Origin: a phage
Reading direction: 5' to 3' (one strand)
DNA: 58,567 nucleotides
Sequence record: PZ445423.1
Below the pieces are notes generated by a model that saw only the letters and a list, made by a program, of their open reading frames with translations, was not told the origin of the DNA and searched no databases. Shown here in pieces: positions 26,576 to 34,587 of the stretch (its first letter is position 1; each line of letters begins with the position of its first letter). The position numbers and the translations under genes are program-made.

Positions 26576-27528
26576 TAGACACGTTCTCCAATTAATACAC
26601 CGCGAAGGTTTTCCCCAAAGAATGCGCAAGGTTGCGGATATAAACTAAAGTCCGCAGTCTTAACCACATTTTCAAGCAATAGCAGGATATCAATATTGTA
26701 CACTCCCGTTATTGTGCGGTCCTGTAATACGAAGCTTGCACCTTCCGCATCGTCATAATGGGTACGCGCCAGACCGTTTTCAATATATACACGCGGTCGG
26801 TCTTCTGCGAACGGTTTAATTTTATGCAAGCCTTCAAAAAGACCTGGATCAACAGGATGTGCATTACATTGAACATTTAAAATACGACGTATATCGGGCC
26901 ACTCCGCATCAATAAGCTGTGTTCGCAACCAGCGGCCTTCCGGATAATGAAACGTTACATTGTTCTTACTAACCTGAATATGTGTCGGGTTAGCTTTAAT
27001 GCGAAGTATTTCTTTAATAGCAACAGACGGTATTATGCAGTCAATAGGGAATTGATTACCAAACCAATATTCCGCAATGGTGACGTTATTTGTAGCAAAC
27101 AGGCTACCGTTATTAATCAGAATACCGCAAGCCCACGGGCGGGACGCATCCGAGCCTACAAACGGAGCAACAGACTTCACACCGTGTACGAAGCGAGCAC
27201 CGTCTATTTCGTATAAATCACCTTCAGGGAATACGTGAGGCGTTTCCTTGTCAATGCAGCGTATAGCAACACGAAACGGTCCGGACTTAATATTAAGTTT
27301 ACCGTTAGCCATCATTGTTAACTGTACGGTTTCGTCACAGTTTGAAATAGCTTTAATCATAGGCCCAGCTTCAGGCTTGCAATCAATATCCAGCTCAATA
27401 GGGCTACCCAGTGCAATAACACCGTTAAAGCCCTGTACCTGTCCATCACGGATAAGAAAGCTGGTAAGCCCTTCTACCAGTTCCTTTTTAGCGACGGACC
27501 CTTGAACAAATTTAAGAGCGTCTAACAT
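26575..27528 (-). CDS. putative sliding clamp (beta-clamp-like processivity factor)
   Basis: 317 aa directly upstream of and coupled to the polymerase; ACGILINNGSLFATNN loosely resembles the beta-clamp LVATDGHRLA region. Confidence 0.35.
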   Translation of the reverse strand: MLDALKFVQGSVAKKELVEGLTSFLIRDGQVQGFNGVIALGSPIELDIDCKPEAGPMIKAISNCDETVQLTMMANGKLNIKSGPFRVAIRCIDKETPHVFPEGDLYEIDGARFVHGVKSVAPFVGSDASRPWACGILINNGSLFATNNVTIAEYWFGNQFPIDCIIPSVAIKEILRIKANPTHIQVSKNNVTFHYPEGRWLRTQLIDAEWPDIRRILNVQCNAHPVDPGLFEGLHKIKPFAEDRPRVYIENGLARTHYDDAEGASFVLQDRTITGVYNIDILLLLENVVKTADFSLYPQPCAFFGENLRGVLIGERV

Positions 27529-27755
27529 TAGCGATCCTCGATTGCTCTAATTGTGGTTAAATCTAATTCGCAGGTTGGAGGGTATCCATAAAGTCCCATT
27601 TGTTTTCCTTGTGCATTAAACCATGTACCTGACGGATCCTGCCACTGCTTAGGTGTCTTGTGGAGAAATACTACTCTGTTTTCACCATAATAATTAATTC
27701 TTACTCCTGTGTGAGTATATTTACGTTTACCTTTTGGTCTTCTTAAGTTAGCCAT
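27528..27755 (-). CDS. hypothetical basic protein
   Basis: 75 aa; stop/start overlaps with both neighbours. Confidence 0.35.
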   Translation of the reverse strand: MANLRRPKGKRKYTHTGVRINYYGENRVVFLHKTPKQWQDPSGTWFNAQGKQMGLYGYPPTCELDLTTIRAIEDR

Positions 27756-28675
27756 CAGAACAACTCCATTACACGATCACGGAATGTGCCGTCATGGGTG
27801 GCGTTAATGTTTGCAGCAATTACACCATACGCCCATAAGTTGAAGGCAGCACGTGATTCATAGATTGTTGATAAACGTTCGTAAGTGAAACCGTTTTGCT
27901 CAAGGTATTTAAGGACAGCATCCTGTTCAATTTCAGTTAATGTTGAAACATGCTTACCAAAATGATGGCGGTCCGGTGACTTATCTGATACGCGCATTGG
28001 TCCCCACGGAGGAGTAACCACACTTCCAAACGCTGCCGCTTGAATCCAGGAGGATGAGTCACAGCTATACCACGGATAACGCTCCATAATTGTTGTTGAC
28101 GTAATACCAAACGCATGAAGTTTAATCTTAGCACGCCCGCTACCGTCGCAAATATATTTGTCCCACATGCGGTCAAGCCAAGTTTTAAGCGTGTCCGTTG
28201 AACGCCCTACCATGCCCCCGATGGTGATGTATTCGTAGTTCTTCATGTAGTATTCAAGATAGCGGAAGTCCTCCCCGAAGTGGAAGCAGGGTAACGGTTT
28301 AGCACCGCGTGCTTCCATTTCAAGCTGGTTACGGTAGGTTTGCAACGGATCACCGATACCATCAAGCACCGATGCCATTACCGCACCATCTTCAACGCGA
28401 AGAATATCTTTGTTGCGCTTAATGTATTCACAGTATTCAACAATATCAATGTGAGCACCTAAAGAATGTGCAGAGAATGCACCGGAGTCGAGAAATACTT
28501 TAGCCCCGTCCGCACGCATCTGATCAACATACTTTTGACGCCCAACGTAGTGATATGATTCCAAAATATGGGGCAGATTGCGCGTGATATTTTTCTCATG
28601 CTCAGACAGCTTTTCATAACGCTGCTGGCCAGGCATATATCCGTTCGTGTAAACTGCTGCCATAAAAACGTTCAT
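27755..28675 (-). CDS. dpdA: DpdA-like DNA-guanine transglycosylase (TGT fold)
   Basis: 306 aa; FLDSGAFSAH matches the TGT active-site DSGGFQ region; adjacent to a full preQ0 synthesis gene set. Confidence 0.75.
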   Translation of the reverse strand: MNVFMAAVYTNGYMPGQQRYEKLSEHEKNITRNLPHILESYHYVGRQKYVDQMRADGAKVFLDSGAFSAHSLGAHIDIVEYCEYIKRNKDILRVEDGAVMASVLDGIGDPLQTYRNQLEMEARGAKPLPCFHFGEDFRYLEYYMKNYEYITIGGMVGRSTDTLKTWLDRMWDKYICDGSGRAKIKLHAFGITSTTIMERYPWYSCDSSSWIQAAAFGSVVTPPWGPMRVSDKSPDRHHFGKHVSTLTEIEQDAVLKYLEQNGFTYERLSTIYESRAAFNLWAYGVIAANINATHDGTFRDRVMELF

Positions 28676-28878
28676 TTTTGGAACGGCCCTCCAAACTGAT
28701 CAATTAGTTCTAAAGTACGCCACGTTTCATTAAATGCTTCGTCCGCTCGATGTTTAGCGTCAATAAGCTGCTGCTTTAAAACATCTGTAGGCGCATCATT
28801 CTGTATTGCAGAGCAAGCATCCGCAGTACCTGCTTTAAGCTGGTAGAATGCTGTCTCTAAGATTAGTTGTCTTGACAT
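28672..28878 (-). CDS. hypothetical protein
   Basis: 68 aa from the ATG at 28878 (SD GGAGGA); the longer track start would overlap the upstream hairpin. Confidence 0.35.
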   Translation of the reverse strand: MSRQLILETAFYQLKAGTADACSAIQNDAPTDVLKQQLIDAKHRADEAFNETWRTLELIDQFGGPFQK

Positions 28879-28890
28879 ATTTCCTCCAAT

Positions 28891-28930
28891 AACTAAAAAG
28901 CCCATACCAGTATTATGACCGATATGGGCT
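28891..28930 (-). terminator. candidate terminator/attenuator after folE
   Basis: On the - strand: AGCCCATA stem with 16-nt loop and TATGGGCT, followed by TTTTTAGTT. Confidence 0.4.
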
Positions 28931-28949
28931 TGATCTGTAAAGCTATCTA

Positions 28950-29597
28950 TTATTTACAAGCTTCGAGGAACTCCCGGCGCCAATATGCACCCATATCGGT
29001 TCCCCCCAGCCCCGCGCGTGCGGTGCATCCGCGGAACGCTTTGGTGATAGTAGAGCTGCCGCATACCTGCTTAACACCGCGCGACTCCATGCACATATGT
29101 TTGGCGTCAATATAAACACATACAGCTTTCGGGTTTAAATGCTCTTGAATAGCGTCTGCAATCTGGTTAGTAAGACGTTCCTGAACTTGCAGTCGACGAC
29201 TAAAAGCATCCACAACGCGAGACAGCTTACTAAGCCCAACAATCTTCCCATTGGGGACATAACCAACAACAGCATGACCGATGATAGGAGCCATGTGATG
29301 CTCACAATGACTGTATACAGGAATATCACGGACAATGACCATTTCATTGGTGTTTTCCGCCCCATCCTCAAAGGTTTTAAACAGACCAGCAATATCTACA
29401 TCGTAACCGCTAAACCATGTAGCATAAGCTTTAGCGACACGGTCTGGTGTCTCTGCTAATCCTGGACGTAATTCAATGCAATCTTCAATCTGAGTTAGTA
29501 AAGTATGCACCGCGCGAGCAATACGGAATTGAGTACCTTCATTATCAATAGTAAATTTTGGCATGGTTTGCAGTTTCCTTGTTGTTAATGTGGTCAT
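28950..29597 (-). CDS. folE: GTP cyclohydrolase I
   Basis: [18 protein letters not shown] and [17 protein letters not shown] match conserved FolE segments (ETPHRIAKMY, TSTCEHH in E. coli FolE as recalled). Confidence 0.9.
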
Positions 29598-29598
29598 A

Positions 29599-30120
29599 TT
29601 ACAGGCTATAGTTTACGTGACATTTCGAAGTTTCTTCGATGGTGCATTCTACAAGTTGAACACCATGTTCGTCAAGCAGTTGTGGCCCAATTACTTCAAC
29701 CATGTACGCAGCTAAGTTTTCAGCGGTCGGGTTGAATGGAAGTGACACCAGCGAACCTAAATAATCCATTTGATCCCGATGCGACATATTGTCCATAGTT
29801 GTCGTATCTACAAATTTATTTAAGCTCTCAATGAGAGGATCATGCTCCCAGTGCAGGAACTTATGGTCCCAGTTATCTTCCAGCCACTGACACAGCGTAG
29901 TTTTAACCACACTAAAATCGATCACGCGTCCCACGTTATCCAGCCCACCTTTTTCGCGAAGTGTGCCACAGCGAATAACTTTAACGTCCGTACGACCTTT
30001 CGGTGCAACCTTAAAGTGAAACTTATAATTATGACCGTGAAGGTGACGACACTTGCTTTCATGTCCTACAACACGATGACCGGCGCAAATTTCATGTGAA
30101 CGAATTACTGTATAGCTCAT
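29599..30120 (-). CDS. queD: 6-carboxy-5,6,7,8-tetrahydropterin synthase
   Basis: 173 aa with CRHLHGH (CxxxHGH zinc/catalytic motif of the QueD/PTPS family). Confidence 0.85.
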
Positions 30121-30665
30121 TTTAATACCTCTTTAGACTGTTCAATTTCTAACGCACGCTGTGCTGACGCAATAATGTCTTTCAAATCTTCTACAAGAGT
30201 CTTATGACCGCGTTCGCCAGGCTGCAACGCCTTTTTAATCAAATGTTGTAAAGCTGGGTTAGTTGTCTTCCAAGCTTCCAAGACATCATACACGTCTACG
30301 ATACATTTTACAACATTCCCATTTTGATCTTTACCATAAATAATTTTCTGATATTTATTCATGGGAATTTTAGATGGTTCGTATTTCATAAAAATTGCGG
30401 TTTTGTCAATTCGCCAATCGGGTAAATTCCCTTCAATGGCTTGCTTGGCATAATCCTCCGCAACAATATAACGCCAAGATATAACCGAATCCCGTTCTAA
30501 CGGTATTGCGTTATCGCAGGATTTTTTATACCAGTCCCATCCTTGCTTATGGTTTTTCTTAAGAGAACCGTCAGCTAATTGAACTTCAAACTGTTCGTTT
30601 TGAAGAAAAATGGGCATTCCTTTCCCATCGTGCTTGTGCCAGATTTTATTAAGATTATCTTTCAT
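30117..30665 (-). CDS. hypothetical protein embedded in the 7-deazaguanine cluster
   Basis: 182 aa from the ATG at 30665; start follows the transporter stop by a few nt and the stop overlaps the queD start; no motif recognised. Confidence 0.45.
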   Translation of the reverse strand: MKDNLNKIWHKHDGKGMPIFLQNEQFEVQLADGSLKKNHKQGWDWYKKSCDNAIPLERDSVISWRYIVAEDYAKQAIEGNLPDWRIDKTAIFMKYEPSKIPMNKYQKIIYGKDQNGNVVKCIVDVYDVLEAWKTTNPALQHLIKKALQPGERGHKTLVEDLKDIIASAQRALEIEQSKEVLK

Positions 30666-30667
30666 TT

Positions 30668-31147
30668 TTACGCTCTTGCTGTACGTGAATGAACTTCGTA
30701 AACAACCCAAAGGATAGCGGACGCTGTGAACTTACTTAAGCTCATTGCTACCATAGATCCCGGATTAACAATACCTATAATACTTAAGAACACAATGGAG
30801 TCAATCGGTACAGCTACCAAAGAGCTGATAAATACTCGTTGATGGAAAGGCTTCTTGGTGACCGTGTATACCACATAGTCCGCAAACTCACTAAGCGCAA
30901 AAGACGCAACGGATGCAACTACAACCGCAGGATCTCCGAACACCCAGCTAAGGATGCAACCAACAATCATTGCAGGGATGACGCCTTTGCCAGCGTTACG
31001 CTGTGCGTAATCACGCAGAACAAAGATAATACCTACAAAGAAAGCCATCATTGGGACTACGCCAAGTGGCGTATTAAGCATCGGAAGGTAGGAAAAGCCC
31101 AGGTTTACGAATGTAATTGCAGCCAGATAAGCAACGATAAATTTCAT
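30668..31147 (-). CDS. integral membrane protein, putative 7-deazaguanine precursor transporter (YhhQ/QueT-like)
   Basis: 159 aa, SD GGAGA, 4-5 predicted TM helices; located inside the que cluster; family call tentative. Confidence 0.45.
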   Translation of the reverse strand: MKFIVAYLAAITFVNLGFSYLPMLNTPLGVVPMMAFFVGIIFVLRDYAQRNAGKGVIPAMIVGCILSWVFGDPAVVVASVASFALSEFADYVVYTVTKKPFHQRVFISSLVAVPIDSIVFLSIIGIVNPGSMVAMSLSKFTASAILWVVYEVHSRTARA

Positions 31148-31267
31148 ACTTTTGTTCTCCAGTTTTAACAGCGATATTCGCTGGTTGTCGGGTTTAAAAG
31201 CTTTAGTAGTATAGTTGGGTTACCGCACCCTAAACAATGCGCTAGCGGTGCGGTTTTCGCGGTAAGA

Positions 31268-31990
31268 TCAAATGTGTTTGCTGTAAGCCTTATCCATAAA
31301 TTCGCTATAGCCTTTAGCGCGAAGTTTACACGCCGGGCATTCCCCGCAACCGTATCCCCAGTCATGCAGAGTACGACGGACGCCATTATAGCACGTATGG
31401 GACTGCTCAATTACTGTGGTTAAGAAACCAACCTTATCCGCCAGCTCAAACGTTTCCGCTTTGTTTAAACGCATAAGCGGAGTAACAAAATGGATATCTG
31501 TTTCATATCCAACGTTTAACGTAGCTTCAAGCAAATCTACAAACTGCTGACGGCAGTCCGGATAACCGCTATAGTCCGTTTCACAAACGCCCGTAACCAC
31601 ATATCGGGCTCCGACCTTCTGCGCGTAAGCGTGCGCGGTAGTCAGGAAAAGGGCATTACGGTTTGGCACAAAGCTTGCCGGAAGGTTGTTGTGCTGTTCA
31701 TGATACTCGTTAACATCACCTTCGTTCCCGATTAAAGCGCTATTGCCGATCTGTTTCAAAGCAGGTAATTCAAAGACAACAAACGGGACATTGTGCTCTT
31801 TACAAATTTGATTAGCACAAGCCAGCTCAATGTTATGACGTTGACCGTATGCAAAACCGATAGCGTAGACTTTGTCATAGTTATTAAGTGCAAGACCCAA
31901 ACATGTCACGCTGTCCTGGCCGCCAGACAGGACGACAACGGCGGAGTTATGATTTTTTACAGGGAATACCAGTTTATCTAATTTATTCAT
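31268..31990 (-). CDS. queC: 7-cyano-7-deazaguanine synthase
   Basis: 240 aa; PP-loop VVLSGGQDS; C-terminal Cys cluster CYNG...CGECPAC typical of QueC zinc site. Confidence 0.9.
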   Translation of the reverse strand: MNKLDKLVFPVKNHNSAVVVLSGGQDSVTCLGLALNNYDKVYAIGFAYGQRHNIELACANQICKEHNVPFVVFELPALKQIGNSALIGNEGDVNEYHEQHNNLPASFVPNRNALFLTTAHAYAQKVGARYVVTGVCETDYSGYPDCRQQFVDLLEATLNVGYETDIHFVTPLMRLNKAETFELADKVGFLTTVIEQSHTCYNGVRRTLHDWGYGCGECPACKLRAKGYSEFMDKAYSKHI

Positions 31991-31991
31991 T

Positions 31992-32180
31992 TTAGAAACC
32001 TTTAAGGCTAATATTAAGGTTAATGACTACTTGTTCAACTACAGCTTCAGAGGTTACCTGACGCTGGTGTATCTCAAGCTCCGTATGTATTTTCTTGGAT
32101 GCAGCACGACAAATAGCGTCATTCAACTCGTCTTGTAAACGTTGAATTTTCTGCATAAGGATTACAGTTTCTTCATTCAT
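31992..32180 (-). CDS. small protein, paralog of the upstream ORF
   Basis: 62 aa; shares the pattern L-x-x-L-N-x-A-I-x-x-A...H-x-E-L-[DE]-I...V-x-x-V-x-I-N with 32173-32385; stop abuts the queC start. Confidence 0.5.
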   Translation of the reverse strand: MNEETVILMQKIQRLQDELNDAICRAASKKIHTELEIHQRQVTSEAVVEQVVINLNISLKGF

Positions 32181-32385
32181 TTACTTCACCTTTAATATCA
32201 CAAGGGTTGATTGTTACGTTAGACATCACAATTGGATGATTGCGAGCTCCAATTGTGCTAACGTGATTAATATCTAATTCTACATGCACGCCCTGCATAG
32301 TAGCGTGAGCAATTGCAGAATTAAGTTTTTCTACCAGTTCAGTGATCATTTCCTGATGCTGTTTCGCTTCTTCCAAAGTGATCAT
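32173..32385 (-). CDS. small protein, paralog of the downstream ORF
   Basis: 70 aa; start overlaps the queE stop (TAATG) and stop overlaps the next ORF start. Confidence 0.5.
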   Translation of the reverse strand: MITLEEAKQHQEMITELVEKLNSAIAHATMQGVHVELDINHVSTIGARNHPIVMSNVTINPCDIKGEVNE

Positions 32386-33092
32386 TATTCCACCCCGATA
32401 TATTTGTGAACCTGAAGCTGCAACGTGTAACCGTATTTCATACAGCTTTGGACAACGGCTTGGATATTACTGTGGTTAAGGTCTTCATCCTGCTCGTCCA
32501 TTGGCTGTAAATATATCTTACCCTTGAAACCCTTCGGAGGTCTAGCGATAAATGGCGTAGCTTGATGATCTAATGCCTGAAGCGGCAAACCATCTTCCAC
32601 GTTTACACAGCACGCTTTAAGTACATATTTAAATGCATTAGCGCGGCGCAGCACAGAAGGATGAATCTTTGAGGTCTTGGGGCTACATACAATTACAGGT
32701 AACTGGGAAAAGTTCTTAGGTAAAGGCATAGACCCATTAGTTTCAATTTGCACCAAATAGCCGCGCGATAACAGTTGTTCAATAAACGGGTTAATTTGCT
32801 GACGGAACGGTTCACCCCCAGTGATAACCACAAGTGAGGTGCTATTGCCTGATTCCAGCTTACGGCTTTCGATTAAACGCATAATATCGACAATATGATA
32901 AAGACTACGACCAACAGTATAATCGGTATCACAGCCAGGGCATTGCAGATTACACCCAGCAAGACGCACAAATACAGCAGGTTGGCCGCAGAATGGACCT
33001 TCACCCTGAATGGTAGAGAATACCGAATGCACGTCTAAATACATATCGTTTTCTTTAGAACGGGACTCGGGAGCTTGTTGATTAATATTCAT
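32385..33092 (-). CDS. queE: 7-carboxy-7-deazaguanine synthase (radical SAM)
   Basis: 235 aa with CNLQCPGC cysteine motif and Gly-rich SAM region VVITGGEPF; SD AGAGGA. Confidence 0.85.
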   Translation of the reverse strand: MNINQQAPESRSKENDMYLDVHSVFSTIQGEGPFCGQPAVFVRLAGCNLQCPGCDTDYTVGRSLYHIVDIMRLIESRKLESGNSTSLVVITGGEPFRQQINPFIEQLLSRGYLVQIETNGSMPLPKNFSQLPVIVCSPKTSKIHPSVLRRANAFKYVLKACCVNVEDGLPLQALDHQATPFIARPPKGFKGKIYLQPMDEQDEDLNHSNIQAVVQSCMKYGYTLQLQVHKYIGVE

Positions 33093-33161
33093 CTTAAATC
33101 CTCTAGTGAAAAAGAAAGCGCCTCATTGGGCGCTTTCATTATAACGTGATATGTTTTGATA

Positions 33162-33965
33162 TTACAAGCCGTTCAGGGCTTCCGGTACTGGCATAGGTAC
33201 GCGACCAGTTACACCATTAAACTTCTTCCAACGTGCATACTGAGTTTTAACGGTATCTTCGTTCAGACCGTGGCGACCTGCCAGATTCAGAACATAAGAG
33301 ATTGGAGCAGGCTGACCCAGCGTAGCGCTAATCTGATCCATCAGGGCCCAGGCACGACCGCAGGAAGTTTCAGGTTGCGGACGACGAACACCATTCTGTT
33401 CAGGCATACGGTTCGCTTCTTTCGCTTTTTCACGTTCAGCTTTTTCGCGGGCTTTTTCAGCAGCCTTTTCAGCCTGTTTAGCAGCGCGGATCTTGTCTTT
33501 GAAGCCTTTGATAGACGAATCCAGTTCGTCAACCATGCTCTGAGCAGCAGTTACTGCACCGGACAGATCTTCACCTTTGGATTTTTTAACAACTGCTTTC
33601 AGCTCTTTCAGAGCATTCTTTAAATGCTTCAGCTGTTCAGAACCCTTAGATTCTGCTTCCGTGATCTGATCAACAGTGCTTTCATCGGTAATACCGGATA
33701 AAGCAAACTTCACGGTTTCAACTGCCTGAGAAAGAGCGGTAAATTTATTTTCCGCTTCAGTACGAATTTCAGCTTGTTTCTTTTCAGCGGCAGCTTTTTT
33801 CTCTGCTTCTTTTTTCTCTTTTGCTACGCGTGCAGCTTCAGCGGCAGCGGCTTTTTTAGCTTCTGCATCGTTAGCAGTAGCTTCTTTCTTTGCAGGCTTA
33901 GCAGATTTTGCAGCGGCAGCAGCGGCTGCGGCAGCAGCGGCTTTCTTATCTTCAATATTACTCAT
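33162..33965 (-). CDS. Ala/Lys-rich histone H1-like protein with a globular C-terminal domain
   Basis: About 267 aa from the ATG at 33965 (SD GGAG; track start is GTG); long AAAAAAAAAAAKSAKPAKK / KKAAAE low-complexity run. Confidence 0.5.
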   Translation of the reverse strand: MSNIEDKKAAAAAAAAAAAKSAKPAKKEATANDAEAKKAAAAEAARVAKEKKEAEKKAAAEKKQAEIRTEAENKFTALSQAVETVKFALSGITDESTVDQITEAESKGSEQLKHLKNALKELKAVVKKSKGEDLSGAVTAAQSMVDELDSSIKGFKDKIRAAKQAEKAAEKAREKAEREKAKEANRMPEQNGVRRPQPETSCGRAWALMDQISATLGQPAPISYVLNLAGRHGLNEDTVKTQYARWKKFNGVTGRVPMPVPEALNGL

Positions 33966-34092
33966 TTTCTTCACTCCGAATTATTATGGGTTCGTTTGTT
34001 ACCAACGGGGTTAAATGTACCAAAGGATTTTGTGACACGCAACCCCTTACATAAACATTTTTAAAAATATTTTTGATCAGGGTTAGAACTTA

Positions 34093-34587
34093 TTAGCTCT
34101 TCGCACCTCTGCCCGGTGTCCATGCTGCTTGCAATGCGTGTTGCTCACAAATGACCCTGGCACCGGAAATAATACCACCCTCCCGTTCAGCATCGTATTT
34201 GACACGGGCAGGTTTCCAAAGTCCTTCATCCATTGACGGAACGTATTGCCCAATTTGAGGTGAGCAAAAGCCTTGGATATCGTATTCCACACAGAATTCG
34301 GCTTGTGCTCTGATTTGGGCGTGATCCAGGATCGTTTCTGGAAGTTGCGTAAAGTAATCAGACAAAATGCGCTCAACGATTTCCCGTTCATATGGTGCAG
34401 CTCCTAAGTTTTCTGTCAGATTAATATAAAGCATTTGAAGATCAACATCTTCAAGATCTTTTAAATCGTTTACTGGTGTTACCAGTGTTGACTCTGGACA
34501 ACAGATAATTCCAAGTTGGTGTAATGTCAACCAATTGGGATGCTTTGCCAAGAGTTCAAATTTATCTGTATCAATTAGGACGTACAT
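34093..34587 (-). CDS. hypothetical acidic protein
   Basis: 164-aa ORF with SD AGGGGA. Confidence 0.4.
   Translation of the reverse strand: MYVLIDTDKFELLAKHPNWLTLHQLGIICCPESTLVTPVNDLKDLEDVDLQMLYINLTENLGAAPYEREIVERILSDYFTQLPETILDHAQIRAQAEFCVEYDIQGFCSPQIGQYVPSMDEGLWKPARVKYDAEREGGIISGARVICEQHALQAAWTPGRGAKS

Follow-up and report, generated by a model that had tools for sequence, protein, structure and literature searches.

The replacement of guanine by a 7-deazaguanine base in phage DNA is an already known system, which was established for the genus Seuratvirus in 2019-2020 and is a signature of the subfamily Queuovirinae. In the closest known system, that of Escherichia phage CAjan, liquid chromatography-tandem mass spectrometry found 2'-deoxy-7-cyano-7-deazaguanosine (dPreQ0) at 70,628 per 10^6 nucleotides (nt), about 32% of G, with the derivatives dADG, dG+, dPreQ1 and dQ all below detection; deletion of dpdA by CRISPR removed all modification and left the DNA fully cleavable by the tested enzymes (PMC6884629). 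Deletions of folE, queC and dpdA lose the modification and deletion of yhhQ does not, the queC and folE mutants having about 12-fold less dPreQ0, which they draw from host 7-cyano-7-deazaguanine (preQ0), and the modified G lies in GA and GGC (PMC7544227). Replacement affects about 25-32% of G, and GA and GGC hold 23.96% and 4.28% of the G in CAjan, respectively (PMC10484667). The CAjan-type enzyme belongs to subfamily DpdA1, and insertion of the base is post-replicative (PMC10516641). Seuratvirus phages broadly resist type I and type II restriction-modification systems in vivo, and the modification is a signature of the genus (BASEL study, PMC8594841). Here we analyze a phage sequence of 58,567 bp (record PZ445423.1; "the window" means this whole stretch), which carries at 27528-33092 on its minus strand a cluster of densely packed, co-oriented open reading frames (ORFs), most of them abutting or overlapping, with genes for preQ0 synthesis and a DpdA transglycosylase.

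A preQ0 and DpdA gene cluster shared with phage CAjan

We consider it highly probable that this cluster serves a Seuratvirus (Queuovirinae) coliphage as its module for dPreQ0 hypermodification of DNA. A first-pass annotation, made from the letters of the sequence, had placed folE, queD, queE, queC and dpdA here on the minus strand and quoted the motifs DSGAF, CRHLHGH, SGGQDS and CNLQCPGC; ORF calling and profile searches confirm the five genes at the same positions, and all four motifs are present, a combination that goes well past coincidence. In the direction of transcription, the cluster runs from queE through a 70-amino-acid (aa) ORF, a 62-aa ORF, queC, a 120-nt gap, a yhhQ-like gene, a 182-aa ORF, queD, folE, a hairpin, a 68-aa ORF and dpdA to a 75-aa ORF, after which come the genes for the DNA polymerase clamp and PolB. 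The features, all on the minus strand and in window coordinates, are as follows:

27528..27755, minus: 75-aa small ORF between dpdA and the clamp gene, abutting dpdA (PHROG 38388, E 8e-58)
27755..28675, minus: dpdA, phage DpdA1-type DNA guanine transglycosylase, preQ0 into DNA (PHROG 887, CAjan identity)
28672..28878 (mechanical ORF to 28905), minus: 68-aa small ORF (PHROG 20065, CAjan orthologue)
28898..28931, minus: terminator-like hairpin, 14-bp stem then a T run (consensus scan)
28950..29597, minus: folE, GTP cyclohydrolase I, first step from GTP (PF01227, NF006825, CEHH)
29599..30120, minus: queD, 6-carboxytetrahydropterin synthase (Pfam PTPS, PHROG 2389, CRHLHGH)
30117..30665 (mechanical ORF to 30710), minus: 182-aa ORF, probably from the ATG at 30665 (PHROG 23361)
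30668..31147, minus: yhhQ-like membrane protein, 159 aa, putative preQ0/queuosine-precursor transporter (CAjan identity)
31268..31990, minus: queC, preQ0 (7-cyano-7-deazaguanine) synthase, stand-alone, 240 aa (Pfam QueC, TIGR00364)
31992..32180, minus: 62-aa small ORF (PHROG 24420)
32173..32385, minus: 70-aa small ORF (PHROG 26258)
32385..33092, minus: queE, radical-SAM 7-carboxy-7-deazaguanine synthase (NCBIfam QueE models, CNLQCPGC)

The CAjan cluster has the same gene order and occupies the same place, downstream of a helicase gene and upstream of the clamp and PolB genes; it carries an extra 107-aa ORF between queD and the homologue of the 182-aa ORF, which is not in the window. At the protein level, DpdA, the 75-aa ORF and the YhhQ-like protein are 100% identical to their CAjan counterparts, followed by QueE (99.6%), QueC (97.9%), the 70-aa ORF (96%), the 68-aa ORF (93%), the 62-aa ORF and FolE (each 85%), QueD (79%) and the 182-aa ORF (55%). 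Gene content, motifs, order and identity to CAjan are read from the window itself, and which modified base is made, at which motifs, with which genes and with what protection from restriction is carried over from the CAjan experiments. The first-pass annotation had proposed that a preQ0 pathway and DpdA place dPreQ0 in the DNA of the phage itself to counter restriction, and the CAjan work supports this reading (PMC6884629, PMC7544227), the two DpdA proteins being identical. A 2026 preprint makes the same inference for another new Seuratvirus, backed by digests.

By analogy with CAjan, FolE, QueD, QueE and QueC would make the free base preQ0 during infection, from GTP through dihydroneopterin triphosphate (H2NTP), 6-carboxytetrahydropterin (CPH4) and 7-carboxy-7-deazaguanine (CDG). 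After replication, DpdA (DpdA1) would swap guanine for preQ0 by base exchange at GA and GGC, with Asp206 as the predicted nucleophile and Asp63 as the predicted base. The product would be 2'-deoxy-7-cyano-7-deazaguanosine at up to about 28% of G, and many restriction enzymes of types I and II would cut the modified DNA less well. In the window, 28.2% of G lies in GA or GGC (6,313 GA and 1,070 GGC among 26,153 G), which corresponds to 63,030 per 10^6 nt and equals the share published for CAjan (23.96% + 4.28%).

Conservation relative to CAjan is uneven along the cluster. At the nucleotide level, folE, queD and the 182-aa ORF are 83, 80 and 67% identical to CAjan, respectively, and the other cluster genes 92-99%. 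This divergence counts against a straightforward transfer from CAjan, since activity levels could differ between the two sets of alleles. It also bears on the idea that the cluster is partly inactive, for example through the divergent FolE or QueD, and that the DNA is modified just at a low level from host preQ0. FolE and QueD are indeed the least conserved enzymes, QueD and QueE fall under NCBIfam equivalog cut-offs (see below), and the CAjan queC and folE mutants show that host preQ0 can sustain such a residual level. On the other hand, all ORFs are intact, with catalytic motifs retained, many further Seuratvirus genomes, at 91-96% identity, carry these divergent alleles too, and the synonymous-only divergence of dpdA and the yhhQ-like gene shows selection on the module, so that we regard partial inactivity as extremely unlikely. 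As a separate observation, 28950-30665 forms a mosaic patch within the otherwise conserved cluster, and comparison of the sequences suggests a recombination hot spot in the queD-yhhQ interval.

Enzymes of preQ0 synthesis and base exchange

Pfam, NCBIfam and the CAjan comparison find the full preQ0 pathway (FolE, QueD, QueE and QueC) encoded with its motifs intact. FolE matches Pfam GTP_cyclohydroI (PF01227) at E 3.7e-63 and NCBIfam NF006825 at 206 bits against a cut-off of 174, and has the zinc motif CEHH at residue 98; a weak QueF-like match, below cut-off, is attributed to the shared T-fold. QueD matches Pfam PTPS at E 1e-21 (77 bits, cut-off 22.4) and PHROG 2389 at E 2e-54, with CRHLHGH at residue 24. 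For QueE, the top five NCBIfam matches are all QueE models (E 1.7e-27 to 1.7e-20), and the protein also matches Radical_SAM and Fer4_12 and carries CNLQCPGC at residue 47. QueC matches Pfam QueC at E 1e-74 and TIGR00364 at 242 bits (cut-off 150), and its PP-loop SGGQDS starts at residue 22.

QueC also separates this cluster from that of phage 9g (Nonagvirus), which belongs to the same subfamily, makes dG+ and has the same core order dpdA-folE-queD-queC-queE beside the clamp and PolB genes, with a DpdA1 that is 69% identical to the window DpdA. Phage 9g has a 471-aa Gat-QueC that gives dG+, whereas the window QueC aligns just to residues 241-457 of that protein, at 29% identity. Consistent with this, a Gat domain is missing from QueC, and its match to the 418-position PHROG 1550 profile, which includes Gat-QueC fusions, begins only at position 132. 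Since QueC stands alone without a Gat domain, the Nonagvirus route to dG+ is excluded. The 9g annotation shows no equivalents of yhhQ or of the small ORFs, including the one between the clamp gene and dpdA, and has a 253-aa hypothetical gene instead.

The absence of QueF and of an amidotransferase, which the first-pass annotation had reported, holds in Pfam and PHROG searches and in the alignment of QueC with its 9g counterpart. Pfam detected no GATase, QueF, methyltransferase or formyltransferase in the cluster ORFs or in 33 other non-structural ORFs of at least about 95 aa. Among those 33 ORFs, the scan recognized a helicase, a ligase, a dUTPase, the clamp, a PDDEXK nuclease, an NrS-1-type polymerase domain, a SLOG protein and a holin.

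DpdA (306 aa) matches PHROG 887, "queuine tRNA-ribosyltransferase," at E 8e-96 and is 100% identical to the genetically validated CAjan DpdA. A published homology model on the archaeal tRNA-guanine transglycosylase (arcTGT) supports a TGT-type fold for the CAjan enzyme, with D206 as nucleophile, D63 as base, and S64, F67, D105, H132, G153, G154 and F189 lining the pocket (PMC7544227). All nine residues are present in the window DpdA, where the DSGAF motif corresponds to D63-F67, and all nine are invariant in 25 close homologues of 68-75% identity. The family comprises 6,528 clusters at 50% identity, and in a diverse sample of 48 of its members (29-65% identity) D206 never varies, while each of the remaining residues apart from F67 shows conservation of at least 90%. 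Compared to CAjan, about 41 of the 921 nucleotides of dpdA are changed with 0 amino-acid changes. Since nucleotide differences have accumulated without amino-acid change in both dpdA and the yhhQ-like gene, the comparison indicates that the two genes are under strong purifying selection.

Several results weigh against these assignments. QueD scores 58 bits against the TIGR03367 equivalog cut-off of 89, and QueE is below every QueE equivalog cut-off in NCBIfam. DpdA does not match Pfam TGT (PF01702) even at E 10, the same profile matches 0 of the 48 diverse homologues (E 0.01), DpdA has no sequence match in the PDB by phmmer or profile, and it scores 16.9 bits against the cut-off of 200 for NF041059, the NCBIfam equivalog of bacterial DpdA. 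The chemistry of this phage, moreover, is a prediction from its genes and from CAjan. The PADLOC DpdA profile reaches 15.6 bits (E 0.0013) over residues 147-209 only, and hhalign pairs FLDSGAFSA of DpdA with TDSGGFQV of Escherichia coli Tgt at a probability of just 6.5%. The AlphaFold model of DpdA is of low confidence (pLDDT 59, pTM 0.57), a Foldseek search of the PDB with this model returning nothing significant. The first-pass annotation had made its reading conditional on a match of the TGT-like ORF to DpdA/TGT profiles, and in the strict sense the ORF fails these. Judged from the sequence, the DpdA assignment draws on PHROG 887 and on the characterized CAjan enzyme, to which the protein is identical, and it is independent of the fold because the sequence is identical to that of an enzyme whose deletion abolishes dPreQ0 in CAjan.

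The low equivalog score also sets this DpdA apart from the bacterial Dpd system (bDpdA/DpdB/DpdC, structure 7ui4), and no DpdB ATPase or DpdC homologue was found among the phage's other non-structural ORFs that were scanned. Bacterial DpdA gives levels below 0.1% of G, compared to 0.1-30% for DpdA1 (PMC10516641). The bacterial system pairs modification with restriction, whereas the phage module is anti-restriction only.

The four preQ0 enzymes are also the canonical pathway to queuosine and archaeosine in tRNA, and many database records still label the transglycosylase a "queuine tRNA-ribosyltransferase." Both points would fit a cluster aimed at RNA or at host metabolism, in which host tRNA queuosine is boosted or altered or GTP is drained. 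However, CAjan needs the identical DpdA to have dPreQ0 in its DNA, which becomes restriction-sensitive once the protein is lost. The phage has no tRNA genes, and its scanned ORFs include no QueA, QueG or QueF with which to finish queuosine. Bacterial TGT and archaeal arcTGT act on tRNA, whereas the substrate of DpdA is double-stranded DNA, and DpdA, at 306 aa compared to 577 aa for arcTGT (1iq8), lacks the C-terminal tRNA-binding domains of the latter. We therefore give a role in RNA or host metabolism almost no credence and favor DNA modification as the function of the cluster.

Outside the window, five metagenomic homologues of DpdA1 (P0242, P0248, P0257, P0266 and P0304) are about 600-640 aa long, and their profile match is split at residue 205. 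In P0242 and P0248, an insert of about 330-345 aa begins with Cys and ends with Gly-Asn, with Ser as the next residue (RYPWH|C...VTGN|SVDSSSW), and sits two residues before the catalytic Asp. This insert at the DpdA active site looks like an intein, a reading that comes from inspection of the sequences, as Pfam recognizes no intein in the four of these homologues of about 600 aa that were scanned.

The YhhQ-like protein and the unassigned ORFs

The transporter label of the YhhQ-like protein follows the literature, in that Kot et al. name the CAjan protein YhhQ (PMC7544227). The match to Pfam Vut_1 (PF02592) is 25.3 bits against a cut-off of 27.2, that to TIGR00697 is 22.2 bits against 50.95, and BLASTP against E. 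coli YhhQ (221 aa, compared to 159 aa here) gives a non-significant E of 1.3, so that we treat it as a putative member of Vut_1/YhhQ. It is 93.8% identical to CAjan yhhQ at the nucleotide level, with about 30 of 480 nucleotides changed and no amino-acid change, which is notable for a gene whose deletion in CAjan has no laboratory phenotype. The probable role of the protein is the salvage of external preQ0, and phages grown in the laboratory can do without it.

The first-pass annotation had counted three unassigned ORFs inside the cluster. There are four (68, 182, 62 and 70 aa), none of which has a Pfam, NCBIfam or PADLOC match, as well as a fifth, the 75-aa ORF that abuts dpdA at 27528-27755.

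The 68-aa ORF is 93% identical to a CAjan orthologue of the same length. PHROG 20065 aligns from residue 10 of the longer mechanical ORF, the ATG at 28878 is preceded by GGAGG, and the CAjan annotation begins at the same start. Since the upstream ATG at 28905 lies inside the 14-bp hairpin, we favor 28878 as the true start, and translation probably skips the first 9 codons of the ORF at 28672-28905.

Between queE and queC, the 62- and 70-aa ORFs form a tandem pair of paralogues, which BLASTP aligns over 26 residues (E 2e-5). The 70-aa ORF has just 9 homologue clusters, all at least 97% identical, which suggests that it is restricted to Seuratvirus; since these homologues are all near-identical Seuratvirus copies, comparative genomics cannot inform its function. 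We rejected the possibility that it is an accessory gene broadly tied to such clusters, given that its homologues are confined to Seuratvirus, and the label "radical SAM domain-containing" that it bears in some records is unsupported, with no Pfam match even at E 10.

The 182-aa ORF probably starts at the ATG at 30665, leaving the first 15 codons of the ORF at 30117-30710 untranslated: PHROG 23361 aligns from residue 16 of the 197-aa mechanical ORF, and with this start the ORF no longer overlaps the yhhQ-like gene. The N-terminal half of the protein varies, and phage Dru_SM1 keeps just an 85-aa C-terminal version. The last ~75 residues (window 30117-30368, ~83 aa) are nearly invariant, with 31 invariant columns among 21 diverse sequences and the consensus NKY..EI...V.VDVYDVL.AW...NPALQHLIKKALQPGERGHK...EDL.DI.ASA.RA.ELE. 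This domain is shared by hundreds of phage and prophage proteins whose N-termini are unrelated; one of these proteins sits among ERF, YqaJ, SSB and MazG genes on a P22-like contig without deazaguanine genes. The ORF has no Pfam or PDB match, and its AlphaFold model (pLDDT 64) found nothing better than E 0.5 in a Foldseek search of the PDB. A sequence pattern had raised the candidate of a DUF3310 / T7 gp1.7 nucleotide-kinase-like protein, which we rejected: hhalign with the full alignment and with the C-terminal domain, and an unfiltered hmmsearch, gave chance-level matches to the wrong part of gp1.7, and Pfam DUF3310 was not matched.

These ORFs matter for the identity of the final base. Four cluster ORFs without an assigned function, one of them (182 aa) just 55% identical to its CAjan counterpart, could in principle, like the divergent folE and queD alleles, lead to a further derivative (dADG, dG+, dPreQ1 or one not yet described), and extra enzymes are known to give phages at least eight 7-deazaguanine derivatives (PMC10516641). 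However, each of the four ORFs has an orthologue in CAjan, which carries one ORF more and yet contains only dPreQ0, and 9g modifies its DNA without any of the four. None of the four matches an amidotransferase, QueF, methyltransferase or formyltransferase, the conserved domain of the 182-aa ORF is found in phages without deazaguanine genes, the 70-aa ORF is confined to Seuratvirus, and three of the four ORFs (62-70 aa) are too small for typical enzymes. A further derivative is thus very improbable, and dPreQ0 is the expected base. The suggestion in the first-pass annotation that the unassigned ORFs or the transporter-like gene could change the chemistry is not borne out, since CAjan has all the orthologues with only dPreQ0, and deletion of its yhhQ was without effect. 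By the same analogy, the four unassigned ORFs are unneeded to explain the chemistry and give no reason to expect a different base, because CAjan has the orthologues with dPreQ0 only and 9g modifies without them.

There is a slim chance that one or more of the 68-aa ORF, the 62/70-aa pair and the 182-aa ORF tune the modification rather than being passengers. As accessory genes, they could aid DpdA at GGC besides GA, shield the preQ0 pool from host QueF or Tgt, or time modification relative to replication. On this reading, the YhhQ-like protein, being perfectly conserved, could also be of importance for salvaging preQ0 in the gut.

Transcription signals, genome context and implications

The first-pass annotation had described one minus-strand unit, and all genes of the cluster are co-oriented. 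Two strong terminator-like hairpins on the minus strand, at 28931-28898 and 33137-33114, flank or interrupt it. The first, with 14 pairs, lies between folE and the 68-aa ORF and is a putative terminator. The second, with 9 pairs (6 G-C) and then a T run, lies 22 nt upstream of the queE start codon and directly follows a promoter-like TTGTAA-18-TATAAT. Within 27000-34500, the number of terminator-like sites (17) exceeds that in shuffles (6.6 +/- 2.7), whereas sigma-70-like promoter sites are at shuffle expectation (15 vs 15.0), and no promoter was called. Between queC and the yhhQ-like gene, a 120-nt non-coding gap (31148-31267, minus strand) contains an 8-bp hairpin, ACCGCACC...GGTGCGGT. Because of the hairpin at 28931-28898 and of this gap, the cluster may not be one uninterrupted transcription unit.

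Bacterial yhhQ genes often lie behind preQ1 riboswitches. Rfam gave no match at gathering score in the whole window and only chance-level matches to unrelated families in 27000-34500, and nothing like a preQ1 riboswitch was detected in the gap. We therefore rejected the idea that such a riboswitch, or another RNA element, precedes the yhhQ-like gene or lies elsewhere.

The window is the genome of a Seuratvirus (Queuovirinae) coliphage with 44.7% G+C, and its length falls within the 56-61 kb of the genus (PMC8594841). It shares 91-96% DNA identity with Dru_SM1, Greed, Seurat and CAjan. A megablast search with the cluster found matches to 80% or more of its length in 32 phage records, almost all from Escherichia phages of the genus Seuratvirus, with Dru_SM1 (96.5% identity), Greed, SLUR63, Seurat, VogelGryff and CAjan among the relatives; the first 25 kb of the window are 90-93% identical to the same Seuratvirus phages. 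At 1-1560 on the plus strand, an ORF begins at base 1, and the alignments of relatives begin near their own position 547, in the terminase/portal region. From this, the window appears to be a whole phage genome whose ends lie at the packaging genes, not a piece cut from a larger sequence.

What these findings offer is a correct annotation; knowledge of 7-deazaguanine modification of DNA as such is not advanced by them. For the phage, dPreQ0 is expected at GA and GGC, at about 28% of G, together with resistance to many type I and type II restriction enzymes. Nanopore reads of its DNA are predicted to be of lower quality, and HaeIII and EcoRV are predicted to refuse in part to cut it. Altogether, these expectations would be relevant wherever the phage is sequenced, cloned or put to therapeutic use.

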